Source of the DNA: Candidatus Poribacteria bacterium | Lineage (GTDB): Bacteria; Poribacteria; WGA-4E; PCPOR2b | Reading direction: 5' to 3' | Length of the DNA stretch: 64,000 nt | Assembly (NCBI GenBank): GCA_965116925.1 | Contig: OZ220744.1 | Location: forward strand, 2,729,136 to 2,793,135 | Part shown: piece after piece, positions 8,795 to 62,725 of the stretch | Position numbering within the stretch: position 1 is the stretch's first letter | Layout of the letters: each line of letters opens with the position of its first letter | Position numbers and translations under genes: made by a program | Notes under the pieces: model-generated | What the model saw: the letters and a program-made list of their open reading frames with translations, nothing else | Told to the model about the DNA's origin: nothing | Databases searched by the model: none

Positions 8795-8895
8795 TATGGT
8801 AGATTTTAGAATTAATGAGACACTCCAAATCGGCGCAGTTGCAAACAGCGCCTACCAAACAAGAGACCGGTAGGTGCGGTTTGCAACCGCACCGG
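8787..8895. repeat. MITE-like element family 1, copy A (reverse orientation, one end degenerate)
   Basis: 'tagattttagaattaatgagacactccaaatcggcgcagtt..cagcgcctaccaaaca' is the reverse complement of the copy-B/C terminus. Shares the 'ggtaggtgcggtttgcaaccgcaccg' internal palindrome with copy C. Confidence 0.65.
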
Positions 8896-8971
8896 GCATC
8901 GTTCGGAAATTACCCAATTAATAAATTAATCTTCATGAGTGTGCCTGCTACTTTGAATGTCCAAGCCCTAT

Positions 8972-10742: not shown

Positions 10743-10866
10743 ATTTGAACTCCAATTATGAGATAAGGAATAAGGTTCATGTCAAAAGACAGTGCAAGAC
10801 GATTAGAACGTGAAACGTGATGCGTGAAACGTGAAAGTAATTTGTTCATTGGTTCATTAATGCTCT

Positions 10867-10900
10867 AGTGAATTTATAGTAGATTTTAGAATTCACTATA
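10867..10900. repeat. Minimal 'solo-TIR' remnant of MITE family 1 (both termini fused, about 30 bp)
   Basis: 'tatagtagattttagaattcactatag' is the family-1 right terminus joined directly to the left terminus (ctatagtgaattc|taaaatctactata). Confidence 0.5.
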
Positions 10901-16792: not shown

Positions 16793-16922
16793 TGCTCATG
16801 TTAAGATTTAGTGCAAAAAAACCGAATGTTCGTAGGGGTTGGGTCCCCCAACCCTTACAGCGGGCGGGAGACCCCGCCCCTACGATTTCGCTTCGTGTTT
16901 TGCACTTTCTTTTTACATGAGC
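16793..16922. repeat. MITE-like element family 2, copy b (inverted relative to copy a)
   Basis: 'gctcatgttaagatttagtgcaaaa...cgtaggggttgggtcccccaacccttacagcgggcgggagaccccgcccctacg...tttgcactttctttttacatgagcc'. Confidence 0.8.
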
Positions 16923-17040
16923 CAAAGTTTTTGGTTAGTAGGGAACAACGGTCGTTGTTCCCTACAACTTGCGTTATAGTAACATCTGAAATGTCTGCCG
17001 TCAAGTATCAAAGAGTCAACTACTCAACCTTGATTTTATT

Positions 17041-20246: not shown

Positions 20247-20329
20247 ATTTTTATCTGTGTAATGCGTAAAACGTGAAACGTAAAAACATCCGCGAATAAA
20301 CGTGAAAAAAAGAGTGTTGGTTCATTATA

Positions 20330-20435
20330 GTGAATTCAAAAAATAAAGAAACACTTGCGCCACCCCTGTTTGGTAGGCGCTGTTTATAACTGCGCCGATT
20401 TGGAGTGTCTCATTAATTCTAAGGTCCACTATAGT
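20330..20435. repeat. MITE-like element family 1, copy B (short form, about 106 bp)
   Basis: 'tatagtgaattcaaaaaataaagaaacacttgcgccacccctgtttggtaggcgctgtttataactgcgccgatttggagtgtctcattaattctaaggtccactatag'. Termini share CTATAGTG inverted. Confidence 0.75.
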
Positions 20436-20685
20436 TCATTGGTTCATTAAAACAAGTCGACAACACCTGTAGGTCGAGATTCATATCTCGACATCTTCAT
20501 ACTGTGATCACAGGTTGGGAAACCTGTGACTACGAAAGACTATTGATTTTGAAAAATCAGTCTCCAGCAGGGCAACCACAAGGGTTACCCCTACAGGAGT
20601 TATCCAATGTAGGGGCAGGTCTTGTGCCTGCCCAAAACCTGACACGCAATTTATCTCACTCGCTGGTACGCGAACTGCGATGTGA

Positions 20686-21885: not shown

Positions 21886-22467
21886 TCATTGGTTTGCCAA
21901 TCGTAGTTCTGCGGTTGTCTTTCCGCCGTGTTCGACAAGCACCTCAATAACGGCTTCATTGCCTTTCCGAATTGCATCGTCTAACGCGGTTTGGTCACGA
22001 TCCCCCGTTGCCCGGCGGTTAATATCTACTCCGTGTGTTATAAGCAACAGCGCAGTTCTACGATAGGCATCTGAGTTTTCCTTGCCGCTGGTTGAGCCGC
22101 CTTGCGCTGCGGCGTGGAGTGCTGTTGTCATACCGAACGCATCTCCATTGACGTCTGCTCCATCTCCGAGTAGCAATTCAACGGCTTCGGCACACCCTGC
22201 ATCCGCCGCCCAAGCGATCGGGGTTCGCCACCATTGGGCGCGACGTGAGTTGAGGTCTGCCCCTGATTGAATGAGTCGCTCACACAGGCCGGTCATATTT
22301 CTGTGGGCTGCCCAATGCAGTGGTGTTGCCCCTCGGAGCACACCTTCTCGGAGCGATTCACCGATGGCGAGTGCCGGTTGTTGTTCGATAAGTTCTTGTG
22401 CAGCTTGTTCATTCCCGTTGTCAATTGCATCGATCAGTTCATCTACAGATGCCATACTTTGCTCCAA
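21886..22467 (-). CDS. Ankyrin-repeat protein
   Basis: Four or more ANK repeats ('GATPLHWAAHRN...LIQSGADLN', 'TALHAAAQGG'). Confidence 0.85.
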   Translation of the reverse strand: MEQSMASVDELIDAIDNGNEQAAQELIEQQPALAIGESLREGVLRGATPLHWAAHRNMTGLCERLIQSGADLNSRRAQWWRTPIAWAADAGCAEAVELLLGDGADVNGDAFGMTTALHAAAQGGSTSGKENSDAYRRTALLLITHGVDINRRATGDRDQTALDDAIRKGNEAVIEVLVEHGGKTTAELRLANQ

Positions 22468-24781: not shown

Positions 24782-25201
24782 TTACCTGTTTCCTTTCTTC
24801 GCTTTTTGGGGAACCGCAAATCCTACCATTCCCCGCTTGCCTAACTGCCGCATAAACGTGAACAGCGATGTCTCCGCCTCTTTTCTCGTCATGCGATATT
24901 TGTCACAAAGTTGTTTGACGATATAACCGATGGAATTATGTCCATCGCATAGTTGCCACACAAAGCCTCCGACATCGTCCAAGACAACCACACGGTTGGG
25001 AGGCAGCATAAAGAGTTTCGCTACCAACTTTAACCACAGCGTCTCCTTCTGAGGAATAACCAATGCAACTTCCCCTTTGTCATCGACCTCCCATTCGATT
25101 AACTGGTTGCGTAGCGGCAATGATTTTAAGATGTCCCCTCGATCCAGTTGGGATTCTGGACGTTTCTTGAGTCTGAGTTTGTAAAGGATTGCATTAATCA
25201 T
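24782..25201 (-). CDS. PqqD-family (RiPP-recognition-element-like) protein
   Basis: 'VVLDDVGGFVWQLCDGHNSIGYIVKQLCDKYRMTRKEAETSLFTFMRQLGKRGMV' matches the PqqD/RRE winged-helix pattern. Confidence 0.6.
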   Translation of the reverse strand: MINAILYKLRLKKRPESQLDRGDILKSLPLRNQLIEWEVDDKGEVALVIPQKETLWLKLVAKLFMLPPNRVVVLDDVGGFVWQLCDGHNSIGYIVKQLCDKYRMTRKEAETSLFTFMRQLGKRGMVGFAVPQKAKKGNR

Positions 25202-25250
25202 CGGTCTATTTGGTTCATTGGTACATTAGTTCATTGGTACATTATCCGTG

Positions 25251-26546: not shown

Positions 26547-26680
26547 GGCTCATGTTAAGAAAGCGTGCAACAGCAACCGAGTTTTCGTAGGGGTTGGGTC
26601 ACCCAACCCTTACGGCGGGCGGGGAAACCCCGCCCCTACGATTTCGCTTCATATTTTGCACTTTCTTTTTACATGAGCCA
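26547..26680. repeat. MITE-like element family 2, copy c
   Basis: 'ggctcatgttaagaaagcgtgcaa...cgtaggggttgggtcacccaacccttacggcgggcggggaaaccccgcccctacg...tttgcactttctttttacatgagcc'. Confidence 0.8.
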
Positions 26681-27581: not shown

Positions 27582-29579
27582 TTAGAAAGGCTTGACAATC
27601 ACCGCTTTAGAGACTAGCGCAATTGCAACCGTTCCCATTCCAATCAGTCCGACACCACAGACAAAGCCTGCTGCTAAAACGGGATTAAACATGAACCATC
27701 GTTTCAGTCCGAATATCTTAATCATGTAAAATCGACCGATAATTGCTCCCATTACCTTTGGAAGCATCATGCCTGGATCTGCTCCGATGCCGCCGACGAT
27801 CCCGTAGAACCACATACTCGGCATCTTTGCCACCCAGAGTATGCCGTAGATTGCCAGCGAGGAGGCGAAGCCTGCCGCAACATAGTTGCCACGAATGGCT
27901 TGCAACATCTGGCTGTTTCCGTCACGAAGCGAGGTTTTCCAGAGGCATTCGTTGGTCGCATAGAGGGGCCACCACGTCTGTGCGAATGGGTATTGCGCCG
28001 ACGGAATTGGCGCAACTTTCCAGACAAAATGCCAGACCACAATGCCGGAGACGATCAGGATCGGCATAAGCAGCAATCGTGCAGCGATACTACTGGTGAA
28101 GGTGGTGCCTGTCAATTCGAGGACACGCCAACTTTGGGTGCCACGTCCGTAGTCTTCGTCCGGCAGCGGGACGAACCAGATATCGATCTCCTCATAACGA
28201 CTCAGGATAAATGTAGTTTCGTGGAGATAAGGGATCTCGAAAAGGTCACGGCCGAGGATCCCGTACGTTCGCGCAGTGATGTATGAATTGATCGGGGTGT
28301 ACAAAAAGGCGAATCCGATAAGGAAAACCAGTGGGAAGTTCGGCGCCATATAGGTGTGGACAATATAGATAAAAGTGGTCATCCCAAAGAGCCATAGGAT
28401 TGCCATCAACCAGAGCGGAAAATCGCCGCGTCCCGGTGGTGGTTCTCTTAACGATCTGCCTGCCCCTGTCTGTTCCTGTCGGGCTTGCTTAAACTTTATC
28501 ACCATCGGAATCGAGGCTGCCATGCCAACGAGGGCGAAGCTGAACGATTTTCCCATCCCAAAGCTAATCCAAAAATCGAGACCGTTATATAAGCCTACAC
28601 CGCGGACATCCAAGCCGGGACGCCACTGATGTAAAATCTCTGCGGGATAGAGAAGTCGTGGGTTCAGAATAAACTGGGTAAAGAATGCCCCTGCCAGCTC
28701 CGTCATGATAATGGGAAATGGCAGCACAAAACCGGTGAGTACCGCTCCGAAGTCGGTCGATAATGCGAATACACCTGTTGGCGCGATTTCTTCAATTACA
28801 TTCGTGAAATCGATAAATGGAATTTTCAGGAGCTGTATCGGCGTTGTCATCATCACGCCTGTAAGTGAGGGGATACCGATATAGATAAATCCCCAGATCA
28901 AACCCGCCATAGATCCGACCGAAAAAACCCGCCACCGCCACGTTTCGACACGTCCGGTGGTTTCTGCTAAGGCGGTCGCGCCCTGTGCTTCGATGGGTGC
29001 CATTGGGTAGGGTAGCCGCTCCATATCCGCTGTCAGTCGAAACAGAAAGTAGCCTGCACTGATATAGCGGATCTCCCCCAGCAGCTTGAATATCAGGAAG
29101 AATGCGATGGGCCAGAACCAGTCCATGTGCAAGAGCGAACGCTCTGCAATCGCTATCGCATCTTTCGGCGGCACAATCCAGAAAGGGATTTTATCCGCAA
29201 TTTCATACGACGCAGCTTGTGGCGTATTGATAAAGTATGCGTACCAGATAAAGCCGCGATACTGACCCCCGGACCCGACCGCTGCACCGGTGAGTCCAAG
29301 TAACATATAAAGCTCTTGTCGCCGAGCGGTTGTGAAAGATCGACGGGCTAGCTCTGTGAACAGGATAACTGCGACCCACGGTGCTGCCCCTGCCCCGGAT
29401 TGACCAGAGACGAGGGTCAGGTAGATTGACCCCGGCATCATCAGCAAGCCGACAAAAAGTGCGCCCAAAAAGACCTTCAGCGTTAGACCCGATTCAAAAG
29501 TGCGGATACCACCATCGATGTCGTAGCGCTGTGCCCAAACTTGCCACTCTTCTGCTTGTGTAATTCGTTCTCTTGCCAT
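27582..29579 (-). CDS. Polytopic membrane protein (about 14-16 TM; possible transporter, family not recognised), paralog 2
   Basis: 665 aa, about 70% identical to the product of 30966-32963. Many hydrophobic helices. Conserved N-terminus 'MARER.TQAEEWQ.WAQRYD'. Confidence 0.6.
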   Translation of the reverse strand: MARERITQAEEWQVWAQRYDIDGGIRTFESGLTLKVFLGALFVGLLMMPGSIYLTLVSGQSGAGAAPWVAVILFTELARRSFTTARRQELYMLLGLTGAAVGSGGQYRGFIWYAYFINTPQAASYEIADKIPFWIVPPKDAIAIAERSLLHMDWFWPIAFFLIFKLLGEIRYISAGYFLFRLTADMERLPYPMAPIEAQGATALAETTGRVETWRWRVFSVGSMAGLIWGFIYIGIPSLTGVMMTTPIQLLKIPFIDFTNVIEEIAPTGVFALSTDFGAVLTGFVLPFPIIMTELAGAFFTQFILNPRLLYPAEILHQWRPGLDVRGVGLYNGLDFWISFGMGKSFSFALVGMAASIPMVIKFKQARQEQTGAGRSLREPPPGRGDFPLWLMAILWLFGMTTFIYIVHTYMAPNFPLVFLIGFAFLYTPINSYITARTYGILGRDLFEIPYLHETTFILSRYEEIDIWFVPLPDEDYGRGTQSWRVLELTGTTFTSSIAARLLLMPILIVSGIVVWHFVWKVAPIPSAQYPFAQTWWPLYATNECLWKTSLRDGNSQMLQAIRGNYVAAGFASSLAIYGILWVAKMPSMWFYGIVGGIGADPGMMLPKVMGAIIGRFYMIKIFGLKRWFMFNPVLAAGFVCGVGLIGMGTVAIALVSKAVIVKPF

Positions 29580-29843: not shown

Positions 29844-30938
29844 TTAGTCCAATGCTTGTAGGAACGCTTCAAAACTGGAGGCTTGGATTGCTCTGAGATG
29901 CAGTTGTGTCAGACGCTCGGTATCTAGTATCAATTCAAGTTTCTGCTGAACGTGTTGTAGGTTATTCTGCGGGAATCTCGCATTGAGTACTGAGAGAATA
30001 TTTTTGATAGTAGTTTCGCGCGCGCCTTGTTCAATGCCTTGTTCAATACCTTGTGCCTTGCCTTGTTCAATGCCTTGTGCCTTGCCACGTTCAAGCAGCA
30101 CTTCTGCCATTGACTGTGCCATTGAGGATACCTCCATTTCTTCTGTATGCCGATCTACCAAGGTTAGTAACTCGTTGTGTTCTTCAGCAGGACGGCGATG
30201 CAGAATCAATAACAACAGATACATAATTGCTCTATACCGCTGCTCCGATTCTGTCACATCCAGCGAGTTCAACTGTGATAGTGCTTGAACCAACGCTTCG
30301 CTTAGTGCCTCTCGACTTGCACCCTCTTTTTGAAGAACCGTTAGCAGCCAGCCCAACGGGTGCCCTGTCTTTGTTAAATCCGTCTCATCTGTTTCCTTCA
30401 CGCTTAAAAACAAAGTGTCAAATTTGGGAACAAACCGAGAGAGTAGGTCCGGAATGTCCATTATGTCAGTGAGTGCCAAGGAAACGCTCCAACGCCGTTC
30501 CCCCGTATATAACACCATCGGGAGGATCGGACGCAAACGCCGCTCACTTCCCGGAACATCATCTGACTCCCATTCCCTACGTTGTGCGTCCCACAGTTGC
30601 GTCATGTAAAACAGCACTCGAAATCCCATCAGCGGATCTACTGTAGATTGGTGTTCAAGCAAGATATAGATGAGCAGTTCATCGGTTTCCGAACCCCGCC
30701 GAAATGGCACGCTGAACACGAGGTCCGATTCCTGTTCTCGGAGTGTGTCAGAAATGAAGCTTCTGTTGAGTGGTGTAAGTTGGTCAAAATCTAAAAACGC
30801 TACCAGCTCGTTTGCAACGATTTCTACCAAGCCACGGACATATTGCTTGTCTTGGAACAACCACCGCGCGCTTCGGTCAGGAAAGTGTTCAATCGGAAAA
30901 TCGACAGAAGCGCGTTCTTCTGTTTCCTCAGTTTGCAT
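29844..30938 (-). CDS. Rpn-family (YhgA-like, PD-(D/E)XK) recombination-promoting nuclease / putative transposase with a DUF4351-like C-terminal tail
   Basis: 'IYILLEHQSTVDPLMGFRVLFYMTQLW' matches the EHQS..D..M.FR hallmark of Rpn/Transposase_31. C-terminal 'ERGKAQGIEQGKAQGIEQGIEQGARE' repeat tail. Confidence 0.65.
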   Translation of the reverse strand: MQTEETEERASVDFPIEHFPDRSARWLFQDKQYVRGLVEIVANELVAFLDFDQLTPLNRSFISDTLREQESDLVFSVPFRRGSETDELLIYILLEHQSTVDPLMGFRVLFYMTQLWDAQRREWESDDVPGSERRLRPILPMVLYTGERRWSVSLALTDIMDIPDLLSRFVPKFDTLFLSVKETDETDLTKTGHPLGWLLTVLQKEGASREALSEALVQALSQLNSLDVTESEQRYRAIMYLLLLILHRRPAEEHNELLTLVDRHTEEMEVSSMAQSMAEVLLERGKAQGIEQGKAQGIEQGIEQGARETTIKNILSVLNARFPQNNLQHVQQKLELILDTERLTQLHLRAIQASSFEAFLQALD

Positions 30939-30965: not shown

Positions 30966-32963
30966 CTAAAACGGCTTGACAATAACCGCTTTGGAGACTA
31001 GTGCGATTGCAACCGTTCCCATGCCAACAAGCCCGACACCACAGATGAAGCCTGCCGCCAAGACGGGATTATACATGAACCATCGTTTCAGACCAAACTG
31101 TTTGATCATGTAAAACCGACCGATGAGGGCACCCACCACTTTTGGAACCATCATCCCCGGGTCTTGACCGATCCCCCCAACAATGCCGTAGAACCACATA
31201 CTTGGCGCCTTTGCCATCCAGAGCAGCCCGTAAATTGCCACTGAGGAGGTAAAGCCGGCTGACACGTAATCGCCGCGAATGGCTTGTAACATCTGGCTAT
31301 TTCCATCTCGAAGTGAGGTTTTCCAGAGACATTCATCGGTTGCGTAGAGAGGCCACCATGTCTGTGCAAAGGGATACTGTGAGGACGGGATAGGTGCGAT
31401 CTGCCAGATGAAATGCCAGACCACGATTGTCGCAACAATCAAGAGCGGCACCATCAAGGCACGCGCTAGGACGTCGCTGGTGAAAGTTGTGCCGGTCAAT
31501 TCAAGCACACGCCAATGCTGCGTACCCGCTCCGTAATCTTCATCTGGCAGGTGGACAAACCAGATATCAATCTCCTCGTAGCGGCTTAAAATAAACGTTG
31601 CCTGATGGATGTAGGGCAGCACGAAGAGCGGTCGCCCTAACACTCCAAATGTTCGTGCGTTGATATAGGAGTGCAAAGGGGTATACAGAAAGGCAAAGCC
31701 GAGGAGGAAAGAAACGGGAAAGTTCGGGACCATCCGATGCACAATCCATACATACACCACCATGCTGAGACCCCATAAGCCGCCCATGAACCAAATTGGG
31801 AAATCACCACGTCCCGGCGGCGTTTGCAGCGAGCCTCGCGCCCCCGCCTCTTGTTGTTTTTTCCTTCTGAGGCTCAACATGATTGGGATGGACGCTGCCA
31901 AACCGACGGCAGCAAAGCTGAAGGATTTGCCCATGTTGAAACTCAACCAGAAATCGAGGTCATTAAACAGCTTAACGCCACGCATATCCAAGCCCGGACG
32001 CCACTGATGTAGGATCTCCAATGGGTAGAGGATTCGCGGGTTCAGGATAAACTGGGTGAACATCGCTGCAACGAATTCGCTAATAATAAGTGGAAACGGT
32101 AGCACAAACCCCTGTAGCATCATGCCAAAATCTGTCCATAGGGCAAACATCCCCGATGGTGCAAAGCTTTCGATGCTTGGGGTGAAGTCAATAAATGGGA
32201 TTTTCAGAATCTGTATCGGTGTTGACATCATCACGCCTGTGAGCGCAGGAATACCGATATAGAAAAACCCCCAGAACAGTCCCGCCATGGAACCGATTGA
32301 AAAGACACGCCAACGCCATGTTTCGCCCTGACCCGTGGTTTCGGCTAATGCGGTCGCGCCTTGCGCTTGAATCGGTGCCAACGGGTAGGGGAGTCGCTCT
32401 AAATCTGCTGTCAGACGGAACAGAAAATAGCTCGCGCTAATATAGCGAACCTCTGCTAGCAACTTCATGACCAGAAAGATCGCAAGGGGCCAGAACCAAT
32501 CCATATGCAACAGCGAACGCTCTGCAATTGCCATCGCGTCCTTTGCGGGTGCAACCCAATAAGGGACTTTGTCCGCGATTTCATACGACTGTGCCTGCGG
32601 CGTGTTGATAAAGTAGGCGTACCAGACAAACGGATAGGCACGATATTGGATTCCAGAACCGACCGCCATGCCGGTTAGTCCCAGCAAAATGTAAAGTTCT
32701 TGTCTCCTTGCAGTTGTGAAAGACCGGCGCGCCAATTCTGTAAATAGAATGACCGCCACCCAAGGCGCAGCACCTGCGCCCGACTGACCTGCAACTAAGG
32801 TCAGATAGATTGACCCCGGCATCATCAATAGACCGATGAAGAGTGCACCTAGAAAGACTTTCAAGGTTAAGCCGGACTCAAAGGTTCTTAAACCGCCTTC
32901 AACATCATAACGTTGTGCCCAAGCTTGCCACTCTTCTGCTTGCGACACCCTTTCTCTTGCCAA
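30966..32963 (-). CDS. Polytopic membrane protein, paralog 1
   Basis: See 27582-29579. Collinear over the full length. Confidence 0.6.
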   Translation of the reverse strand: MARERVSQAEEWQAWAQRYDVEGGLRTFESGLTLKVFLGALFIGLLMMPGSIYLTLVAGQSGAGAAPWVAVILFTELARRSFTTARRQELYILLGLTGMAVGSGIQYRAYPFVWYAYFINTPQAQSYEIADKVPYWVAPAKDAMAIAERSLLHMDWFWPLAIFLVMKLLAEVRYISASYFLFRLTADLERLPYPLAPIQAQGATALAETTGQGETWRWRVFSIGSMAGLFWGFFYIGIPALTGVMMSTPIQILKIPFIDFTPSIESFAPSGMFALWTDFGMMLQGFVLPFPLIISEFVAAMFTQFILNPRILYPLEILHQWRPGLDMRGVKLFNDLDFWLSFNMGKSFSFAAVGLAASIPIMLSLRRKKQQEAGARGSLQTPPGRGDFPIWFMGGLWGLSMVVYVWIVHRMVPNFPVSFLLGFAFLYTPLHSYINARTFGVLGRPLFVLPYIHQATFILSRYEEIDIWFVHLPDEDYGAGTQHWRVLELTGTTFTSDVLARALMVPLLIVATIVVWHFIWQIAPIPSSQYPFAQTWWPLYATDECLWKTSLRDGNSQMLQAIRGDYVSAGFTSSVAIYGLLWMAKAPSMWFYGIVGGIGQDPGMMVPKVVGALIGRFYMIKQFGLKRWFMYNPVLAAGFICGVGLVGMGTVAIALVSKAVIVKPF

Positions 32964-33392: not shown

Positions 33393-36300
33393 TTAATCCG
33401 CTGGTGCGGGTTGAGCAGCCAGACCGCCAACGCCCGGAGCGTCTTCCGTCTCGCTCTCTTGCCGTCCACGCTCATGGAACTCACCGCGGATATCAGCACT
33501 GAACGTCCGCCAAATTAGTAGCTGTTTTCGGACAAGGTTCAAGAAACGACGGTTGACGCGCTTCCATGAAGCAATCTCCCCGCTCTCACGGTGGACATCG
33601 AGGTGAATCTTATACAACTCTTCCTCTTCTCCGCCGACCGGTGAGGTGACAAGCCGAATGGATTGGCTGACTCCGAGATCGTAGGGGGCGAGCCACACCA
33701 TCATGCTGATGTTGTAGGCTTCTTCCTCTTCCTCTTTCCCTTCCACTACCACAGGCGTTCGACCGAAGGCGACCTGATCCGTGTAGAAATCGCTTGCGGA
33801 TTCGTCGGCGTGTGCTTCAAAGTAATCGCGCATAAAGATATTTAAGCCGAGCGATTCTTCTGCCAACACGGTGAAGGGGAGATCGAAGTGCCACTCGTCG
33901 CCTTCAGGCTCCGGCAGCTGCCATTTCCGTTCGATGTCAGGCACCGCCATGCGACTGGCTTTAATTGCAGGATACAGTGTACTTCCAATCACGACAATCA
34001 TTACAATAATGGTTGCTACCACTGTTGACATTGACGAGTAGTTGAGGGTCAATCCAGCAAGCAAGCCAAAGTTGACAAGGACGGTTGCGACTGCCTGGCC
34101 GAGCAGGTAACCGAGCACAGCACCGACAATCGCATACACACACGCTTCCGCGAGGAACAGGAAGGCGATATGCACGGGAGCGAGTCCGACAGAACTGTAG
34201 ATGCCGATTTCACGGACCCGTTCGTAGACCGCACCGAGCATCGTGTTCAGAACGATCAGCGACGCAATTAAAATTGGTATGAATAGGTTACCCATACCGG
34301 AGAAAGAGGTCATTCCGATGGAACTGTAGAGATAGGTGTCCCGATCTTTTCCAACAAAGAAGTCGAGTGCGATTCGGTTCATCAGCGGTGCCATGATCAG
34401 GTCCAGTTTATCTGCCGCACTGAAGATTGTTGGATCGCCGGGCTGTGCTTCCATGTTGACAGCGACGGAGCGTAACGTCCCGCCCTGATTCATGACTACA
34501 TCATACGGCAGGATAGCCACAGCATCGGGAGGTAGATGAATATATTTCTCCAACTCTCCTTCCATGGCTTGGTTCTGTCCTTGGGCGCCACCGCCTCGCG
34601 CTTCCTGCTGCTGCATCAGTTGGTAGTCAACAGGTGTCAGTTCTTCGCCATCATTATCCTGTAAGTCTTTGAAGCCGATACCGAGAACACCCGTAACGGT
34701 GAAGTCTGCGCCGTATACGGATACAGTCGCTTTGCCCATATCGGCTTCGGTGATGCCGAGCAGATCCGCCATACCTTTGGGGAGGACACAAGCATAGGGC
34801 CATTGTGTGGGCCACTCTGCTTCATCGTCGGGGTGATACCATCGACCATACTGGAGGTAACGGTCAATTCCTGTTACACCGGGTTCATCTTGACTCATCC
34901 CGACCAACATGGTAGCAGAGTAGGTCTTTGGCTGACCGGTGGTAGTATTGACAGGCGGTACAGGATCTTGCAGGTTGGGGGTGCGCTCTAGCTGCACAAA
35001 CGACTGATCGCCGGTGCCCGCGGACTGATACCATGCGCGTGGCGCGACGATGTTATGCACTCGGAGGACGGATTCTTCGCCCAGCTCAATCAACGATCCC
35101 TCCTGACGTAATTGGGCTATGATTGCTTCAACCTCTACGTCAGCCTGCTCTGCCGATTTACCTTGCTGCCCCAGTCGTTTCTTCAGCAGTAACCGTAGAT
35201 CTTTTTCAGGGATTTGTGTTTTCCGCAGATCATTTGTGAGTGAGTTGACAACAGGTTCTTCGAGCGGATTCCAATACTGATCTCGGATAAGCATCCCGGT
35301 GTAGCGCGGCGTTACGGAAGGTAGGTTGGTGCTGTTGGGATGCATAAAGGTACGCACCGATGTAAAGGAGATGACCGTAAAGGTGAGAATAACCAGTGTG
35401 CTACAGGTGAGGATGGTGCGGCCCTTCCGCTTACGCATATTGGAAATACCTAGACTGAAAGCGGCAGCGGAGGCAGACAAGCGTCCCACGTCTGCCTTGT
35501 ACACTTTTGATCCCTCCTGCTTAATTTTTTCCACCTGTTCTTCAAATTTCCGGACGATGATGCTGATCACAATTGCCGTCAACGCAAGGACGACGAACGC
35601 AATCAGGATGATAACCGGCGTCGTGGTAATCTGGAATGCGGGGTGCACCTGCGCCAAGAAGAAAAAGACAACGAGGAAGATCGCAGCTGTCCCCATAATC
35701 TGTTTTTGGACGGTTGGGAAAGCGAATATCAACCGTTCCATGAAGTAGGCGAACGGGATCAGGAGGGCGAGATAGAACATCACACCATTGACTACGTCAT
35801 TGCCGGTTTTCTTCACATCGGGGTAGGCGCGGGATTCGTATCCCCACGCGGCGCGGGCAAGTTTGAGTGCCTGCTGATAGTCTTTTTGGGTGAGGGCAGC
35901 CTCCGCCTGATTTAGATGTTCGTTGGCGAATTGGTGGAGCTGATCAAGCCGATCGCTGCTGATGCCGAACCGTTTATACAGACTCGCCCGGTTCTCATCG
36001 AGCCACCACATATCGCGGACGACAACGTATGGGGTTACGCGAATGCTACCGTTCTCGCGGACAACAAACCCTTCTCCGGTATAGAGTGTCGGGTTCTTCG
36101 TTCCGCTTTTACTCGCCTTGATCAATAGTAACCGTTTGCCGATTTGTCCATACGCCATGCCGACCTTGATACGACTGTTAGGCTCCGAATAAACGAGCGC
36201 GATAGGCTCAGTTGCCGAGATACCTTCCTGCTGCCACGGCTTCGATACGCCATACTTTTCTGGTGGGCTATCGCTTGCGGCATCAAAAACTTCCAGTTCA

Positions 36301-39300
36301 CGAAGCGTTCGTAGGTATCGCTGATCCACAAGATCGTAGATAGTGGTAGACACACAGGGGAAAACCACGATACGGCATCCACGACGGTGGGTGTTAATCG
36401 GTATCAGGTTCGGCAAGAGTTTCGCGCCGAAGTTACCGAGATCCGGTGCGTAGACAATATCACCGGAATCCGGGTGGAGGATATAAGCTTCCACCTCTTG
36501 CGTTCCTTTGAGGCGGATGGTGGCACGCCCCTCCATCGCAAGTCCTGCAACCTCAAAGTTTCCTTTATTGTCGCCCATTGCAATGAGATCGCCTCGCACC
36601 CCCATCATGGTTTTGTGCTGATTCCGCAAAGCGAGAATAGGATACTCCACCGGTTTGTTTGGTAGCGCGCTCTCACGGGCATCATACTCGACGACATCAC
36701 CAAACAGGTTGCAGTAGAAGTTCCCCACCCGTGCTGCGGTGGGCATCTTCGGATCGCGCATCGCTTGGATAAGAATAGCGGCAAGGGTTTTCGCCTGTTT
36801 ATGCAAGGCACCATCGTGGCTCAAATCCATTCGGTCAATTGTGTCGAGCGGGGTATCGGTCAACACGCGTGCATCGTCGATGGTGGCAAAAGCAATTCCG
36901 GTAAAGCCGGTCAGGGTTGCCACTTCGCTATCAAAGGCTATCTTACCAGGTATGTAGGTCTTCCAGATCTTACCGCCACTAGCAGAGATTGCGTTGACAA
37001 AGTTGGTCTCACCACCAAACCCGGCGATATCAATGAGTGCCTTAATATCATCGACTTCCTCTTGTGTAAATTCGGACGGGTCCTCGTGGCGCAGGGCAAG
37101 CATCGCATCCATTCGATTGAGCAGGCGCACCTTATTCTTCCGGTTCTTCCGCGCCTCCCGGATATCGTTTCGGATGAATCGTTCGACTTCCTTACGGATA
37201 TAGTCCATATCCTTGAGCATATCCTCGGAAGGTTCGCCCTGATTTTTCATCTGCTCAAACTGCATCTTCATCAATCGAGACACTCCGGATAGCCCGACCA
37301 ACGTTGCGTAATGCTCAGTAACTAAGCTTTCAAGGCTCTTGCCCTCGATGGCTTTTTTCGGATCGATGCCAGCTGCAACTGTCCATTGAGTATTCATCAC
37401 CGCTTGGCGGATCTGATCGTCGGTGAAGGTCCATAGTTTCTGGATACGTTCACCGAAATCGGCACCCTCTGCGTATTCGGCAAGTTTATTTCCGATGGAA
37501 GCGAACTCGCGGCGGAGGACAAATTCGGGCTGCTGGTCATAGAACCACCCTTTGTTGAATACGCCAAACTGGTCGTTCTGGCTGGAGAGGTCAATGGCGA
37601 TAAAGAGAGAGGTGTAGTAACGATTAAAGATGTCTTGCAGTGCAATCGCTTGTTCGATGGAACGTATCTTCCGTGTGTATTCTGACTCGCTGATACGTGC
37701 AATTTTCTCGACCCGTTTTTGTAGATTGCGAAATCGAGCGTTCCGCATCGTGAGCAGGTTATCACGGAGGAGAATCTTGGTCTCCTCGTCCGGATCGCGG
37801 TCAAGACGGTCAAGGATGTTCAGCAGGTTCTGGAGTTCGACAATATCGTTTTTGGCTCGCCGCTTCACCATCTCTAGTAGATGCTGTTCTTCAAGCTGAC
37901 CGAAGATCTGCTCTCGGACAGCCATCGCTCGGTCTGCTGCATCTTCAGGGAGATAGTGGCGGAGGACGAGTGCCTCTTCGGCGAGGTAGGGACGGTTCAG
38001 CGACGCATGGCGTTCAAGGAGGGATTCAATTCGATAGCGTTCAAGGCGAGCGTTCCGCATCGCGGTTTCGAGGATACTCTGTTTATCTCTGGTCAGGTCA
38101 TCAACCAAAATTTGGTCTAATTCTCGTGAGGTTGCTGTTCCCGTTGTCGGGTCCATCATCTCCAACTTCTGGTGGAGTTGAGTCTGAACAATCTCAAACT
38201 GCTTGAGGGTTGCCTCATTGAGGAAGAGTTCTAGCTCATCCGCAAAGCCTGCCGGGAGGTGATCCGGTTTAGAACTTAACTGGGTGATAGCGTTTTTGAT
38301 ACTATCCTCTGCATCGCTGCTTGCGGGAATATTGGCGAGCGTTCGTTCAAGGAGTTGCCGTTCTTCTTCGATGTAGGCTTCCAGAGATTTTTCAGCGCGG
38401 TTGACAACCCTACGAGCTGACTTGATTCGTTCCAAACCCTTAAAGTCAAGATGGCGGTCTAACAACTTCTCTTGGGCATACTGGAGGGTGAATTTCCGTG
38501 GATCTTCAAATTCCCAGTCCTGCAAATTGTCCGAGAGTCGCTGAACATCTACCTCCAGATACGACGGTAGGTCACTCGGTACTGGTAGATAATAACGTCC
38601 CCCCTCCCGTTCCTTCGGTACGAGATAGCTGCTGTCTGGCGTTTGTACATATTTCCCTTCAATCCGTTCTGCCCTTAAATCCGCTTCCAATTTATCTATT
38701 GCCCAAACGTCCAACCGAGCCATCGGTAGGGCAATCTGTTCAATCAATTCACGTTGGGTGTCACGGCATTCAGCTAATGCTTGTGTGCGCAGTTTTAGGG
38801 TACGGTTAAGCATTGAACGCAGGAATTGAGTGGTCTGCAGCGCGTCTTTCTTGAACTTCGCGAGGTTGACCTCTAGTCGTGATTTTTCCTCTTCGGTGAA
38901 TCCTTGCTTCTCCCGTTTCTTGGTTGTTTCGAGTTTCTTCTTCTCTTTCTCTTTTGCGTCACGCTGGGCGTTACGCAACGAGTCAATGTTGCCTTTGGTT
39001 GTCTGTAGATCGGAGAGGGTTGTTGCTAGGGAGGCGACATCTGCTTTGAGTTCGTGGACATCGTGGAAGAAGTTAGGGGGTAAATCTACCAGCACATTTC
39101 GGTCGATCGATAGCAGTAGCTTACGTCCCAGTTCCTCAAACTCAAAGAGGTCGGTACTTAAACCGCGACGCAGCCCGCGCATTGTCGGTGTGCCGGGAGA
39201 ATCCGCTTCTCGTCCGACGATATCTTGACCAATCCCCTCCATAAATGCGCGCATACCCCCCAGTCCTTGGAAGTGGGCATCTGTTGCGACAAACAGAAGG

Positions 39301-40814
39301 GAACGCCCCGGTCGAAATTCCTCTTGGCTGAAGATACGAGCAAGCTCCAACAGAGTGGCAATGCCGCCGGTGGGATCGGCACCGGGTGCCATTGCGGGAA
39401 CGACAGACATTGAGTCGTAATAGCCGGTGATAACAACCAATTCGTCCTTTAGGGTTGGGTCGCCACCTTCAAGGAAACCACGAATGTTCTGCCCAATACG
39501 CTGTTCCCAAGTAATGGTACTAGTGAGACGTGCGTAAATTTTCTGAGGAGACGATTCCGATTGTGCTTCCCCTTCGCCAAGCATAGCCAAGAGTTCGTCG
39601 GCGTCCTCTTTAGCAATCCAGAAGCGGGGGATGTTGGCAGGGACCGTCAGGAATTTGTTCTCAGCCTCACCGCGGATAGTTGTCTCCGGCTCGATGAAGA
39701 GGACAGCTTTCGCGCCAAGCATGGCGGCGTTAATCCATTTGGTACTAGAGTTGAAGTCAACCAGTACAACGCTGCCTTGGGGGATAAAGATGCTGGATTC
39801 ATAGGCGGCAACAAACTCGCCTTCTTCGTCAATTTGCCCATTGTTGTTGTTATCAATACCATCAGTTGCATCGCCGGGGATTTCGTCTACGAAGGCGTCA
39901 CCATCGTTGTCGATGCCGTCGGTATCCCATTGCAAGATCTCAGTTAGTGGGGGAATCTCACCGTATTCGTCGATCTGTCCGTCTTCATTGTTGTCAATAC
40001 CATCTTGCGTCTTTTGGAGATGGCCGTTAAGCACATCGTCAGTGATGCTGCCGACACCGATACGGAAACGGTGGGCGAGGTCTTCCAAAGTATCGCCAGG
40101 TTCAACTTTGTGCCAGAAACCGCCGATATCTTTGCCGTTGAACGAGGAGAGTTCCCCACTTCCCCCATAAAAGAGGGGCGCGGTCAGTCCACCGGTGGGA
40201 ATAAAGAGCGAGTTGCCTTCGACCAGCACTAACTCGCCCGGTTCGTCGATTTCACCATCATCATCGTTATCGCTGCCATCGGTTGCTTGGTCACGGAGGT
40301 ATTGGTTATGCGGGTCAGCCAAGATAGCTTGTGGGTCAACTTGATAGGATTTAGCAATTCCGTCAAAGGTTTCGCCTTGAACGACTACATGCGAGACACC
40401 GTTGGGGAGGAAGGAGGTGCGAACAAGGTTGGGCCAGATTGACCAGATTCGGTAAGTCTTCAGAAGCGTTTGATCTTCGGAAAGAATTTCTACCTTTCCA
40501 TCACCGTGATCTATTGGAACAGAAACGGGAAACTCACGGCTCTCAACGTTTTGTAAGCCGATCTCGACAAATTGGTCAAAGATGTACTTGCTGCCTGAAG
40601 CGGCTTCATCGTAACCGGTGACGCGGGTGGGCAGATTGGAGAGTCGAGCGATGTCTTTTCGCATTCGGCCGATATCGACTTTGTCACTGATTTTGACTGC
40701 AACCTCCGAAAGCCCGACAGACAGCTGTTCGTCAACAGCGAAACCGCCGTGTGGAGATAGTAGCGCGAGAATGCAGAGCCATAGACTGATGTAATAATAT
40801 CTCTTGATGATCAT
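33393..40814 (-). CDS. Giant (about 2470 aa) secreted/membrane multidomain protein: signal peptide, M28-family Zn peptidase with Ca-binding Asp-rich repeats and LysM-like motifs, about 1000-aa coiled-coil, then 3 TM and a FtsX/MacB-type permease module with a large extracytoplasmic domain and a C-terminal cytoplasmic tail
   Basis: M28: 'ITGYYDSMSVVPAMAPGADPTGGIATLLELARIF...LLFVATDAHFQGLGG'. Repeats 'DGIDNNEDGQIDEYGE', 'DTDGIDNDGDAFVDEIPGDATDGIDNNNNGQIDEEGE'. FtsX TM1 'FSLGISNMRKRKGRTILTCSTLVILTFTVIS'. FtsX core 'GNLFIPILIASLIVLNTMLGAVYERVREIGIYSSVGLAPVHIAFLFLAEACVYAIVGAVLGYLLG'. Start set at Met40814 (GGAGG RBS, signal peptide IIKRYYYISLWLCILALLSPHGGFA) rather than the track's 40898. Confidence 0.8.
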   Translation of the reverse strand: MIIKRYYYISLWLCILALLSPHGGFAVDEQLSVGLSEVAVKISDKVDIGRMRKDIARLSNLPTRVTGYDEAASGSKYIFDQFVEIGLQNVESREFPVSVPIDHGDGKVEILSEDQTLLKTYRIWSIWPNLVRTSFLPNGVSHVVVQGETFDGIAKSYQVDPQAILADPHNQYLRDQATDGSDNDDDGEIDEPGELVLVEGNSLFIPTGGLTAPLFYGGSGELSSFNGKDIGGFWHKVEPGDTLEDLAHRFRIGVGSITDDVLNGHLQKTQDGIDNNEDGQIDEYGEIPPLTEILQWDTDGIDNDGDAFVDEIPGDATDGIDNNNNGQIDEEGEFVAAYESSIFIPQGSVVLVDFNSSTKWINAAMLGAKAVLFIEPETTIRGEAENKFLTVPANIPRFWIAKEDADELLAMLGEGEAQSESSPQKIYARLTSTITWEQRIGQNIRGFLEGGDPTLKDELVVITGYYDSMSVVPAMAPGADPTGGIATLLELARIFSQEEFRPGRSLLFVATDAHFQGLGGMRAFMEGIGQDIVGREADSPGTPTMRGLRRGLSTDLFEFEELGRKLLLSIDRNVLVDLPPNFFHDVHELKADVASLATTLSDLQTTKGNIDSLRNAQRDAKEKEKKKLETTKKREKQGFTEEEKSRLEVNLAKFKKDALQTTQFLRSMLNRTLKLRTQALAECRDTQRELIEQIALPMARLDVWAIDKLEADLRAERIEGKYVQTPDSSYLVPKEREGGRYYLPVPSDLPSYLEVDVQRLSDNLQDWEFEDPRKFTLQYAQEKLLDRHLDFKGLERIKSARRVVNRAEKSLEAYIEEERQLLERTLANIPASSDAEDSIKNAITQLSSKPDHLPAGFADELELFLNEATLKQFEIVQTQLHQKLEMMDPTTGTATSRELDQILVDDLTRDKQSILETAMRNARLERYRIESLLERHASLNRPYLAEEALVLRHYLPEDAADRAMAVREQIFGQLEEQHLLEMVKRRAKNDIVELQNLLNILDRLDRDPDEETKILLRDNLLTMRNARFRNLQKRVEKIARISESEYTRKIRSIEQAIALQDIFNRYYTSLFIAIDLSSQNDQFGVFNKGWFYDQQPEFVLRREFASIGNKLAEYAEGADFGERIQKLWTFTDDQIRQAVMNTQWTVAAGIDPKKAIEGKSLESLVTEHYATLVGLSGVSRLMKMQFEQMKNQGEPSEDMLKDMDYIRKEVERFIRNDIREARKNRKNKVRLLNRMDAMLALRHEDPSEFTQEEVDDIKALIDIAGFGGETNFVNAISASGGKIWKTYIPGKIAFDSEVATLTGFTGIAFATIDDARVLTDTPLDTIDRMDLSHDGALHKQAKTLAAILIQAMRDPKMPTAARVGNFYCNLFGDVVEYDARESALPNKPVEYPILALRNQHKTMMGVRGDLIAMGDNKGNFEVAGLAMEGRATIRLKGTQEVEAYILHPDSGDIVYAPDLGNFGAKLLPNLIPINTHRRGCRIVVFPCVSTTIYDLVDQRYLRTLRELEVFDAASDSPPEKYGVSKPWQQEGISATEPIALVYSEPNSRIKVGMAYGQIGKRLLLIKASKSGTKNPTLYTGEGFVVRENGSIRVTPYVVVRDMWWLDENRASLYKRFGISSDRLDQLHQFANEHLNQAEAALTQKDYQQALKLARAAWGYESRAYPDVKKTGNDVVNGVMFYLALLIPFAYFMERLIFAFPTVQKQIMGTAAIFLVVFFFLAQVHPAFQITTTPVIILIAFVVLALTAIVISIIVRKFEEQVEKIKQEGSKVYKADVGRLSASAAAFSLGISNMRKRKGRTILTCSTLVILTFTVISFTSVRTFMHPNSTNLPSVTPRYTGMLIRDQYWNPLEEPVVNSLTNDLRKTQIPEKDLRLLLKKRLGQQGKSAEQADVEVEAIIAQLRQEGSLIELGEESVLRVHNIVAPRAWYQSAGTGDQSFVQLERTPNLQDPVPPVNTTTGQPKTYSATMLVGMSQDEPGVTGIDRYLQYGRWYHPDDEAEWPTQWPYACVLPKGMADLLGITEADMGKATVSVYGADFTVTGVLGIGFKDLQDNDGEELTPVDYQLMQQQEARGGGAQGQNQAMEGELEKYIHLPPDAVAILPYDVVMNQGGTLRSVAVNMEAQPGDPTIFSAADKLDLIMAPLMNRIALDFFVGKDRDTYLYSSIGMTSFSGMGNLFIPILIASLIVLNTMLGAVYERVREIGIYSSVGLAPVHIAFLFLAEACVYAIVGAVLGYLLGQAVATVLVNFGLLAGLTLNYSSMSTVVATIIVMIVVIGSTLYPAIKASRMAVPDIERKWQLPEPEGDEWHFDLPFTVLAEESLGLNIFMRDYFEAHADESASDFYTDQVAFGRTPVVVEGKEEEEEAYNISMMVWLAPYDLGVSQSIRLVTSPVGGEEEELYKIHLDVHRESGEIASWKRVNRRFLNLVRKQLLIWRTFSADIRGEFHERGRQESETEDAPGVGGLAAQPAPAD

Positions 40815-41043
40815 GATAATTCCTCCGATTTTTTTAATAGGCTGACCGGCGCATAGTATGCTATTGTGTTTAGATCTGTCAGATTCTATCATAGTCACAA
40901 AGTCTTGTCAAGATGCAAAACGGATCTAATTCACAAAAACATAAAACGTGATTGGTTCATTTATCATGTTTTAGATTTCATTCATGGAATGCCGATAAAA
41001 TCGGGGATGCAGGGCGTAACTTCTATCAATTTCGTTTTATACC

Positions 41044-47933: not shown

Positions 47934-50883
<2,950 letters not shown>

Positions 50884-50885: not shown

Positions 50886-51055
50886 TATAGTGAATTCAAA
50901 AAATAAAGAAACAGTTGCGCCACCCGGTAGGTGCGGTTTGTAACCGCACCGCATCGGCGCAGTTAGAAACAGCGCCTACCAAACAGAAGAACGGTCGTTT
51001 CATTTTCCTAACCGCACCGGTTTGGCGTGTCCCATTAATTCTAAAATCTACTATA
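50886..51055. repeat. MITE-like element family 1, copy C (long form, 170 bp)
   Basis: Same termini as copy B plus an internal 'ggtaggtgcggtttgtaaccgcaccg...gcgcagttagaaacagcgcctaccaaaca' segment shared with copy A. Confidence 0.75.
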
Positions 51056-51102
51056 ATCACCGAATATGTTAGATGTCAGGATTCGGAGATCCCTCCTACA
51101 GT

Positions 51103-60715: not shown

Positions 60716-60936
60716 CTATCCCTCCTGTTATATTTGGTTCATTGGTACAATAGTTCATTGGTTCATTTCGTTTTCGCGTTTCACGTCCCGATTTCATCGA
60801 GGATCCCGCTACGCGGAGCATCACGTTTCACGCATCACGTTTCAGATGTTACCTATAACTCTACAACGGATGTGGGGAATAATCAAGCCTTTTTGCCCTT
60901 GCGTCACCTTTGTGTATGTGCTATAATTCACCCACT

Positions 60937-61898: not shown

Positions 61899-61928
61899 AA
61901 AAATCGGGATAGTTACACACTTACATAC

Positions 61929-62518
61929 GGGGGTGAAAAGGTTTCGACGAGAGTAGATGATGTAAAGGTTGCATGCCGAGGTCTCCGCAGGCCTCGTTAA
62001 ACAGGCGGAAACAATTTAATTGCCGATGAAGAATTGGCTCTAGCTGCTTAATAAAAGCGGCTCGTCCGGCTAATTTGCGGTCCCGTCGAGTTAGCCCGAC
62101 GTCAACAAACGGGCTGTGCGCCTTACTTGTTCTCAAGGGGCATGGCGCGAGATTTAACTTGAGATAGTCCGCAGCGAATCCGGCATAAGGGAGTCCTATG
62201 GACGAAACACCAAAGCTTATGCTAAGCATGTAGTAGCCTTTATTGAAATGCTCTCGGACGCGGGTTCGATCAGTCTGGTCGACTTGGAGGGCAACCTCCT
62301 CGATTAAACTTGGCTTACATCGGTGAAACCTAAGAGATGGCGACATCTTATGGCAACACCGAGGGATTGTATGGTCCTGTAGAGACTGTAATGATAGGAG
62401 ATAATGTCAACGACAAATCTAGATCTCCTATAACACGCTAGGCTCCACCATTTTGGGTGGATGAAGATATAGTCCACGCCTCTGGGAAACCGGGGGGTCA
62501 CGTGTCCCGCCACCTCCA
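61929..62518 (+). ncRNA. ssrA: tmRNA (ssrA) interrupted by a group I intron in the T-loop. Exon 1 is 61929-62270 and exon 2 is 62505-62518. The tag reading frame spans 62022-62054
   Basis: 5' 'GGGGGUGAAAAGGUUUCGACG...GGUUGCAUGCCGAGG..CCUCG' (D-loop analog and PK1) closely parallels E. coli ssrA. Tag ORF GCC GAU GAA GAA UUG GCU CUA GCU GCU UAA UAA gives ...ADEELALAA. 3' 'GGACGCGGGUUCGAU | intron | UCCCGCCACCUCCA' restores a canonical T-arm and a 7-bp acceptor stem with a G3-U70 wobble. A T-run follows. Confidence 0.85.
62271..62504 (+). other. Group I intron (234 nt) inserted in the tmRNA T-loop
   Basis: 5' exon ends in U paired to an internal guide 'GUCGA' (P1: UCGAU/GUCGA with a U-G wobble at the splice site). 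The intron ends in G. Core-like elements 'GUAGAGACUGUAAUG' and 'GAAGAUAUAGUCC' resemble the P7/P9.0 region (AAGAUAUAGUC) of Tetrahymena-type group I introns. Confidence 0.7.
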
Positions 62519-62725
62519 TCTTTTTTAAGATTTTGAAACATTGGTTCAAGTGTAGTTACGGCATACGGAGTATGCCTACTACTTTGGTTCATTGGTTCAT
62601 TTTGTTTTCACGTTTCACGCATCACGTTTCATCTCCCATGAATGGCAATATCCTTGTAACCTCTGTTAGGCATAATTGAGTTAGTCATTTTGAACCCTAA
62701 CAGTGTTACAAGGAGGAACTGAACC

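Follow-up and report, generated by a model that had tools for sequence, protein, structure and literature searches.

The stretch analysed here (64,000 nucleotides of one Poribacteria genome; below, the window) contains several short repeats with AT-rich ends, one of which occupies positions 50886–51055. The question is whether these repeats are copies of a mobile element, to what type this element belongs, and what moves it. A sequence-only reading had taken them for a recently active non-autonomous element served by a transposase located elsewhere. The part of this suggestion concerning a MITE mobilised from elsewhere is borne out by the copy number, the duplication of TA and the polymorphism described below. 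The repeat is a real and abundant MITE, a new family of an already well-known type of element, and its hosts are sponge-associated Candidatus Poribacteria. The best explanation of the data as a whole, which we regard as very probable, is a non-coding, TA-duplicating MITE family of Poribacteria moved in trans by a DDE transposase.

Copies, termini and internal modules

The copy at 50886–51055 (plus strand), denoted copy C, is a complete long form of 170 bp. It consists of the left terminal inverted repeat (TIR), hairpin H1, inverted hairpin H2, a degenerate H1, and the right TIR. The left TIR, TATAGTGAATTCAAAAAATAAAGAAACAGTTGCGCC (50886–50921, plus strand), fits the family consensus and is identical to that of copy B over 28 nt; the reverse complement of the right TIR, GGTTTGGCGTGTCCCATTAATTCTAAAATCTACTATA (51019–51055, plus strand), agrees with the consensus of the left end in 23 positions out of 30. 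The two outermost TA dinucleotides (50886–50887 and 51054–51055) represent the duplicated target. H1 is a GTAG-headed palindrome at 50926–50950 on the plus strand (GGTAGG TGCGGTT TGT AACCGCACC, the complete sequence being GGTAGGTGCGGTTTGTAACCGCACC). H2, GGTAGGCGCTGTTTCTAACTGCGCC, lies at 50956–50980 on the minus strand and thus points the other way from H2 of copy B.

Copy B (20326–20433, plus strand) is a complete short form of 108 bp, with only one GC-rich palindrome, H2 (GGTAGGCGCTGTTTATAACTGCGCC), between the left and right TIRs. Its start, initially placed at 20330, is in fact 20326, and it sits at a TA within an array of ATGAACCA-type 8-mers. The entire window contains the 28-nt left end TATAGTGAATTCAAAAAATAAAGAAACA at just two places, 20326 and 50886, and the right end CATTAATTCTAAAATCTACTATA, with up to three mismatches, at four, namely, at 8795 and 10875 on the minus strand and at 20411 and 51033 on the plus strand; the number expected from shuffled sequences is zero for the left end, and zero matches were expected for the right end as well.

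Copy A is atypical. It is a hybrid, a 164-bp block at 8795–8958 (minus strand) containing the right TIR (8795–8829), H2 (8832–8856) and H1 (8869–8893), whereas the left TIR of the family is absent. Instead, H1 is joined to a foreign arm (...AATTACCCAATTAATAAATTAATCTTCATGAG, 8894–8940) that comes from a second MITE-like family: the far arm of the block (...CGGGCATCGTTCGGAAATTACCCAATTAATAAATTAATCTTCATGAG, up to 8958) coincides at 73 of 77 bases with an arm of the MITE-like repeat in locus L048, which possesses inverted repeats of its own and, likewise, a central H1. A hybrid similar to copy A is seen in locus L017. Hence recombination between the two families takes place at the hairpin they have in common, or the hairpin itself is exchanged. 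The initial description of three copies with common termini, among them one at 8787–8895, is therefore correct for copies B and C, but copy A has the right terminus only, as its other arm belongs to a different family.

To assess the family beyond the window, one genome per species was scanned with the right-end motif CATTAATTCTAANNTCNACNATA, and the matches were counted in 8-kb blocks. Among the matches listed, the motif is present in more than 108 eight-kb blocks from about 17 Poribacteria assemblies; among the same matches, all but two blocks belong to Candidatus Poribacteria, and the two Mucilaginibacter matches do not contain the extended motif. Pairing of the blastn-short matches to both ends yielded 97 pairs, 94 of them complete elements. 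Thus, the additional copies that would be expected of a MITE are indeed present. The 94 complete copies range from 98 to 298 bp, with clusters at about 102, 108, 129, 139, 163–170 and 190–228 bp. In sequence not selected by the motif, that is, in the window and the orthologous loci retrieved via flanking proteins, the density is approximately one element per 20–25 kb. This corresponds, by rough extrapolation, to a few hundred copies per 6-Mb genome; per-genome copy numbers are extrapolations, since the scan provides a lower bound.

There is no ORF of 180 or more amino acids between any pair of ends, and the small size without transposase coding, the TIRs, the target-site duplication and the dispersed, polymorphic copies are all general features of MITEs. 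In the literature searched there is no description of MITEs in Poribacteria, and a published survey covering 183,232 genomes is silent on this phylum. A search of IMG/VR produced no matches, and viral carriage of the family, which thus has no support, was rejected.

The left end of the elements reads TATAGTGAATTCtAAAAATAAATAGACAC, and the right end, ...GTGTCTCATTAATTCTAAGATCCACTATA. The consensus of the left end over the 94 copies is TATAGTGAATTCTAAAAATAAATAGACACTTTCGCC, and that of the right end, in reverse complement, is TATAGTGGATCTTAGAATTAATGAGACACTCCAAACC. These two are identical at 23 of 30 positions, hence the inverted repeat is about 30–35 bp long and imperfect, and the two ends can be distinguished; the 8-mer CTATAGTG, proposed initially as the inverted repeat, is considerably shorter. 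Most positions of the left end are conserved in at least 90% of copies, although this end was not used for ascertainment, whereas the conservation of the right end is inflated, as the right-end motif served as the search pattern.

The interior is built of GC-rich hairpin modules with a GTAG head, from one to several per element, and the length classes depend on how many there are and how they are oriented. The modules are H1, H2, a CCCGATTTATCGGG hairpin and G-rich hairpins; they vary in number and orientation, occurring in both orientations, as head-to-head doublets and, in loci L013, L046 and L050, as tandem arrays. The initial suggestion that GC-rich palindromes distinguish the long form from the short one agrees with this, as the internal modules differ between copies. 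The length variants may result from gain, loss, inversion and tandem duplication of hairpin modules inside the elements, and further variants, from recombination at the shared hairpin H1 with the second MITE family.

The hairpins suggest an alternative description. REPs have a conserved GTAG head, and all internal hairpins of our elements are 25-nt imperfect palindromes starting with GGTAGG, similar to this head. The repeats could then be a system of the REP/BIME type, in which GTAG-headed palindromes move as single strands by means of a RAYT, an IS200/IS605-like Y1 enzyme, and the AT-rich termini are simply linkers. REPs and RAYTs are treated in PMC2817692. The variable orientation, the head-to-head doublets (observed in copies A and C, as in REPINs) and the tandem arrays are consistent with such a system, as is the presence of H1 in the second repeat family and of several other families of GTAG-headed palindromes in the genome. 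However, H1 and H2 almost never occur away from the AT-rich termini. Stretches reaching up to 330 nt from an element end make up 11.6% of the sequence, and they contain 80 of 87 H1 hairpins (92%), 46 of 51 H2 hairpins (90%) and 24 of 27 G-rich modules (89%), whereas for the other GTAG-headed palindrome families of the genome the respective numbers are only 1 of 12, 3 of 18 and 2 of 15. H1, H2 and the G-rich modules hence belong to the element, and their interpretation as free REPs was rejected on the basis of this co-location with the element ends. In REPINs the palindromes are the likeness; the difference is that here they are not free-standing, 90–92% of H1 and H2 being inside the MITE, and that the mobile unit is bounded by AT-rich inverted repeats. 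Moreover, the termini are true inverted repeats of 30–35 bp, the boundaries between filled and empty sites coincide exactly with the outer TATA ends and are accompanied by duplication of TA, whereas Y1 single-strand transposition yields no duplication, and no Y1_Tnp gene was found among the 30 of 52 window ORFs scanned directly. Taken together, these observations make the REP-type description improbable, and we retain the MITE with internal hairpin modules.

Insertion sites, polymorphism and a remnant

Orthologous loci were retrieved via three proteins encoded in the flanks. In related Poribacteria, the loci orthologous to all four sites of the window are unoccupied, and three clean comparisons of filled and empty sites (copy B with L122, L088 with L035, and copy C with L117–L119) show duplication of TA, located inside the TATA ends. 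The target-site duplication expected for a MITE is thus confirmed.

For copy B, the empty site in L122 is ATGAACCAATGAAT-TA-ATGAACCG, and the filled site in the window is ATGAACCAATGAAC-TA-(element)-TA-ATGAACCA. The same comparison on the minus strand of the window gives AATGAACCAATGAAC-TA-(TAGTGG...CACTA)-TA-ATGAACCAACAC, the L122 sequence being ATGAACCAATGAAT-TA-ATGAACCGATAC. For copy C, the filled site is ATTCGGTGAT-TA-(element)-TA-AAATGGGAC, and the empty one, in both L118 and L119, is ATTCGGTGACGT-TA-GTGGAAATTCC; L117 is likewise empty. Unless one TA is taken out, gaps appear in the alignment of copy C with the empty sites. The independent pair consists of L088, with GACGAGT-TA-(element)-TA-ATTTATTTTATC, and L035, with GGGGACC-TA-ATCTTATTTTAC. 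A duplication extending beyond the TATA ends was not seen: direct matches of 2–8 nt between the flanks are no more frequent than in shuffled partners, and a candidate 3-bp duplication, AWT, was rejected because such flank matches stay at the shuffle level.

The target context derived from the 94 copies is symmetric, roughly palindromic and AT-rich, A-W-Y-TA-R-W-T. In the upstream flank, position −3 is A in 60 copies, position −2 is A or T, and position −1 is T in 62 copies and C in 21. In the downstream flank, position +1 is A in 63 copies and G in 26, position +2 is A or T, and position +3 is T in 72.

The 164-bp block of copy A is missing in five orthologous loci, where the spacer between the GTP-cyclohydrolase and SDR genes is 31–45 nt; copy A thus splits a gene pair that relatives keep at this short distance. 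In the orthologous loci L060 and L079, whose flanks are 86–89% identical, the element occupies one site in opposite orientations.

The activity of the family can be judged from such comparisons. In the relatives with empty sites, the flanking proteins are 88–92% identical to those of the window. On the other hand, the copy C site is also filled in L116, where the neighbouring protein is 97% identical. Within a genome, the identity of copies reaches 98.6% in the closest pair seen. The forms with G-rich modules were observed only in OY764061, their best match in any other genome being 66–78%; such genome-specific architectures indicate lineage-specific amplification. The suggested recent activity is therefore upheld by the sites empty in relatives at 88–92% and by the closest pair, but, given that copy C is shared at 97%, the family is recently active only at the scale of species divergence.

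The fourth site is a 26-bp remnant at 10875–10900 (minus strand), in which two termini are fused, TATAGTGAATTC being joined to TAAAATCTACTATA. The fusion noted initially is real, although the coordinates 10867–10900 assigned to it are not. The left end contributes 12 nt to the remnant and the right end 14 nt, with the junction at the shared AATTC, and the remnant is adjoined by an extra inverted head fragment (CTAGTGAATT) at 10865–10874. Two origins had been offered for this site, internal deletion and excision footprint. Judged from the sequence of the junction, where 12 and 14 nt of the ends meet at the shared AATTC, it looks like an internal deletion at microhomology, and not like a classical excision footprint. 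No second fused 26-bp form was found in about 0.93 Mb of Poribacteria sequence. Metagenome contigs, few of them from Poribacteria, likewise yielded zero matches, which is a weak negative, as the control scan recovered five true family members among 17 matches. With no second instance in these two data sets, the fused form as a recurrent product was rejected.

The remnant has become a part of a gene. It forms the end of an APH/EcKL-like gene (10886–11962, minus strand), both the final codons and the stop: the tip of the remnant replaces the original stop and adds YSEF*, whereas in the orthologs from L110, L112 and L113, which do not have the remnant, the gene ends with ...CTTGA(T/G)TAA.

Genes nearby and the mobilising enzyme

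All copies had been placed in 3' intergenic regions. This does not hold, as copy C ends 2 nt before the downstream ATG, copy A ends about 25 nt ahead of a start codon, and the remnant overlaps a stop codon. Another alternative is an immobile regulatory cassette of the host (a promoter, terminator or protein-binding site) maintained by selection at particular genes. Both termini carry −10-like hexamers, TATAGT or TATAAT. A consensus scan predicts sigma-70-like sites at copies C and B, with the −10 box TATAGT at the very tip of the element and the −35 box in the flank. Many right ends are 8–41 nt upstream of a start codon, and the termini are very similar between species. However, the elements show no preferred orientation: the numbers of gene starts and gene ends faced are 60 and 58 for the right end and 43 and 47 for the left one. 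A mobile promoter, for which an excess of gene starts adjoining the right end was expected, was rejected on the same counts. Furthermore, orthologous genes manage without the element, either orientation is possible at one site, and the promoter-like matches are no more numerous than expected from shuffled sequences. It is therefore highly improbable that the repeats are a host cassette. Within the mobile family, the terminal TATAGT may act as a −10 box where the flank provides −35, any effects on host genes being incidental.

If transcribed, the copies would, according to folding models, form a long hairpin, and one may ask whether such an RNA is the functional product of a family of structured non-coding RNA genes. 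The long copy C indeed folds with paired ends at −47.3 kcal/mol (z = −3.1 against shuffles). On the other hand, the short copy B has z = −1.8, no better than many shuffles, and in 19 short copies none of the 23 predicted pairs has a compensatory change, the covariation term being about zero. Neither strand is preferred relative to genes, and the element has no match in Rfam, the only Rfam hit in the window being tmRNA. With covariation and an Rfam match both absent, this explanation was rejected, and we consider it extremely improbable.

The observations show that the termini are long inverted repeats, that insertion duplicates a TA, preferably in a palindromic AT-rich context, and that species differ in which sites are occupied. 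From this we infer a DDE cut-and-paste transposase acting in trans, which would bind the long termini and cut beside the (T/C)AGTG tips. The ends of Tc1 and Tc3 have the form TA-CAGTG, and some elements of the IS5 family, namely, those of the IS427 group, also produce a TA duplication. The transposase is probably of the IS630/Tc1-mariner kind, to judge solely from the duplicated TA, the palindromic form of the target and the (T/C)AGTG tips; since IS427-group elements duplicate TA as well, another class may be involved.

The search for a transposase with matching TIRs, suggested by the initial reading, gave a negative result. In about 1 Mb of Poribacteria sequence there is no transposase ORF between TATAGTG-type ends, that is, no autonomous copy, and no IS630-family element with matching ends was found in the about 1 Mb of Poribacteria loci. 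Among the 30 of 52 window ORFs (at least 100 aa) scanned directly, none encodes a DDE transposase. The sole transposase-like gene found in the window, at 29844–30938, belongs to PF04754 (YhgA/Rpn-like, "Transposase_31"); it was rejected as the mobiliser, since its second copy, an insertion in L117, has no TATAGTG repeats at the borders.

Several candidate autonomous partners were considered. In L052, two ends are 1076 bp apart, but the intervening sequence is an IS5/IS427-like IS inside the left TIR, with ends unrelated to those of the element; altogether, three copies contain an IS5/IS427-like IS with unrelated ends. In L016, the ends separated by 2440 bp belong to two separate elements around ordinary genes. 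A regular-expression scan for heads and tails at distances of 0.6–3.5 kb with an enclosed ORF produced only one chance pairing. The cognate autonomous IS is often missing for accepted MITEs, including the Correia repeats (PMC2649163).

Relation to known repeat families

The closest known element is the Correia repeat (CREE, NEMIS) of Neisseria, and the Poribacteria family works alike without being a member of it. Both are non-coding MITEs of 100–200 bp with two distinguishable ends, both have TATAGTG(G/A)AT at the termini, duplicate TA and occur in a long and a short form, and in both the tip carries the −10-like TATAGT. Correia repeats begin with tatagtggattaa... (PMC5039591). The right end of our elements in reverse complement, TATAGTGGAT, coincides with this start at 10 of 10 positions, and the left end, TATAGTGAAT, at 9 of 10.

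The insertion of Correia repeats has been characterised in some detail. Their termini carry TA, and the size difference given for filled versus empty sites is 2 bp (PMC2229807, PMC2649163), more exactly, the length of the repeat minus 2 bp (PMC2229807); the insertion is "often at a TA target site" (PMC2649163). Their two forms, of about 105 and about 155 bp, differ in an internal segment (PMC2229807, PMC2649163, PMC5039591, PMC3184786, PMC10969869). The abundance is also comparable: there are a couple of hundred Correia copies per genome, and the Poribacteria family is of the same order by extrapolation from the sampled density. In Correia repeats the −10 hexamer is formed by the first six bases and the flank supplies −35 (the "Snyder promoter", PMC2649163), a layout matched here by the predicted promoters at copies C and B. 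Correia repeats also provide functional promoters and undergo processing by RNase III; the counterparts in our family are predictions, namely, the consensus −10 and −35 matches and the folded hairpin. Inversion of a Correia repeat at a fixed site has been described (PMC10969869), comparable to the opposite orientations in L060 and L079. As regards the enzyme, the mechanism mobilising Correia repeats was undetermined as of 2009 (PMC2649163); no transposase has been named for them, and likewise none was found for the Poribacteria family in about 1 Mb of loci.

At that, the two families differ in several respects. The 26-bp inverted repeat of Correia (tatagtggattaaca/aattt...ccggtacgg or ...tcaggacaa) has only its first 10 nt in common with our termini, which are about 30–35 bp long. 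When the inner termini were compared with those of Correia, 5–49% of 20,000 shuffles per comparison scored as well or better, so that past the first 10 nt or so the resemblance is not significant. The core of the long Correia form contains an IHF site, whereas here the interior consists of GTAG-headed GC-rich hairpins, the cores being set apart by their description; by eye, no IHF-like motif is seen in the terminal repeats. Finally, CREE has been described as unique to Neisseria (PMC5039591), and Poribacteria are a different phylum.

Other repeats share particular features. MITEs derived from IS630/Tc1-mariner elements, such as RUP of pneumococcus and those of the Stowaway type, insert at TA with duplication in an AT-rich palindromic context; they are likewise non-autonomous and depend on a transposase in trans, and the TA-(T/C)AGTG tips of our family are Tc1/Tc3-like, the link being made through the insertion signature only. 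The BOX elements of Streptococcus pneumoniae and the BIMEs of E. coli, as described in PMC10969869 and PMC2817692, likewise have end modules around a variable number of internal ones and alternate the module orientation, and such repeat families cluster and insert into each other. Unlike the Poribacteria family, BOX elements and BIMEs have no long terminal inverted repeats, and BIMEs consist of REPs and linkers only, with no TA duplication.

The terminal TATAGTG(G/A)AT, the TA duplication and the two-ended asymmetry common to both families may be read as a sign that the Poribacteria family and the Correia repeats are substrates of one transposase lineage. We consider this reading unlikely, as well as a second one compatible with it, in which the interior would be a REPIN-like module of GTAG-headed hairpins passed between different MITE families; the elements would then be chimeras, with DDE-type ends and Y1-type hairpins.

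If the common lineage were real, an autonomous element recovered from complete Poribacteria genomes would name the enzyme that moves the Correia repeats; the Correia-like tips thus provide a second, independent place to look for it. For the biology of mobile elements, the family offers a well-sampled MITE whose filled and empty sites are clean, whose subfamilies are lineage-specific and whose interior is modular. By extrapolation, a few hundred copies per genome lie beside start codons, beside stop codons and inside operons of Poribacteria. Hence, gene-start calls, operon predictions and the assembly of MAGs in these uncultured bacteria should allow for the family.

Genes of the window and the MITE

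The DUF123 / GIY-YIG ('Uri superfamily') nuclease gene, encoding a protein of 192–195 aa, is conserved across the Poribacteria beside katG, and in the window it occupies 50302–50883 on the reverse strand. The MITE, the non-coding TA-inserting element, is situated 2 nt from its start codon and has thus pushed the gene's native upstream region (GGTGA...) 170 bp away.

The PF04754 'Transposase_31' (YhgA/Rpn-like) gene at 29844–30938, also on the reverse strand, is flanked by two tandem 665-aa paralogues (27582–29579 and 30966–32963), whose DNA is 70–80% identical. Another PF04754 copy, at 299–1369 of the poribacterial locus L117, is inserted between the FUR and GFA genes, with no inverted repeats at the borders of the insertion.

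The tmRNA gene lies on the forward strand at 61937–62272 (Rfam RF00023, 136.7 bits); since the mechanical ORF at 61921–62346 on the reverse strand overlaps it, the latter is spurious. Also present are a 2501-aa ORF (33393–40898), a fused nucleotidyltransferase/HepT-like protein (2390–3169), an ankyrin-repeat protein (21886–22467), and a repeat protein with a 123–132 nt periodicity that runs off the window start (1–1812) and, to guess by this period, may be WD40-like.

Other palindromes and repeats

At least three additional palindrome families in the window are GC-rich and have a GTAG head: CGTAGGGGTTGGG..CCCAACCCCTACG, TGTAGGTCGAGAT..ATCTCGACA and CGTAGGGGCGAGGTTTCCTCGCCC. Their positions are 5156, 13171, 14607, 16828 and 26583; 13225, 20468, 27494, 29739 and 52648; and 13150, 14581 and 26617. 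These families resemble REP sequences and are found independently of the MITE, whereas H1 and H2, the GTAG-headed hairpin modules inside it, are not. No gene for RAYT, the transposase type that mobilises REP sequences, was seen in the window.

A dispersed repeat of about 109 nt, containing the palindrome GGGTTGGG, is present at 5093–5201, 26572–26680 and 16794–16925, the arms being 93% complementary between the first two; it is probably an additional MITE- or BIME-like family. Many intergenic regions hold micro-tandem arrays, in which the repeated unit is an 8-mer (GTTCATTG/A) or a 7-mer (CACGTTT/CACGCAT), for example, at 10806–10860, 20252–20320, 20434–20450, 25199–25243, 60731–60844 and 62580–62631. 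Copy B, the short MITE of the window, occupies a TA within one such 8-mer array.

Orientation, neighbours and hybrids of the MITE

At orthologous loci of two species, the same TA site is occupied by MITEs in opposite orientations (L060, 6759–6860, versus L079, 453–588, with the left end of the L079 copy missing its first 10 nt). Either the insertions were independent, or the element was inverted in place, as reported for the Correia elements of Neisseria.

Three different MITE copies from three genomes carry, at a TA within their left terminal repeat, an IS5/IS427-like insertion sequence with two overlapping ORFs and the ends GGTTGTGTTTACATT / AATGTAAACACTACC (L052, 4999–6074; L078; L032).

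The repeat CTGTAGGAGGGATCTCCGAATCCYGACATCTAAC adjoins the MITE in 16 of its 23 occurrences (window 51062–51095; also L036, L056, L083, L086 and L087), and the opposite end is often abutted by the short motif CTAGGGTCATT, which in L110 is present without the MITE and followed by TA. These adjoining sequences may be a preferred target or, alternatively, parts of a composite element.

The central hairpin H1 of the main MITE is also that of a second MITE-like family, whose inverted repeats, TTGCGCTCC..ATGAAGATTAATTTATTAATTGGGTAATT, are different and match at 29 of 40 positions. This second family and the hybrids are seen in L048 (about 6650–6850), L050, the window (8894–8940) and L017; window copy A and one L017 copy are hybrids of the two families.
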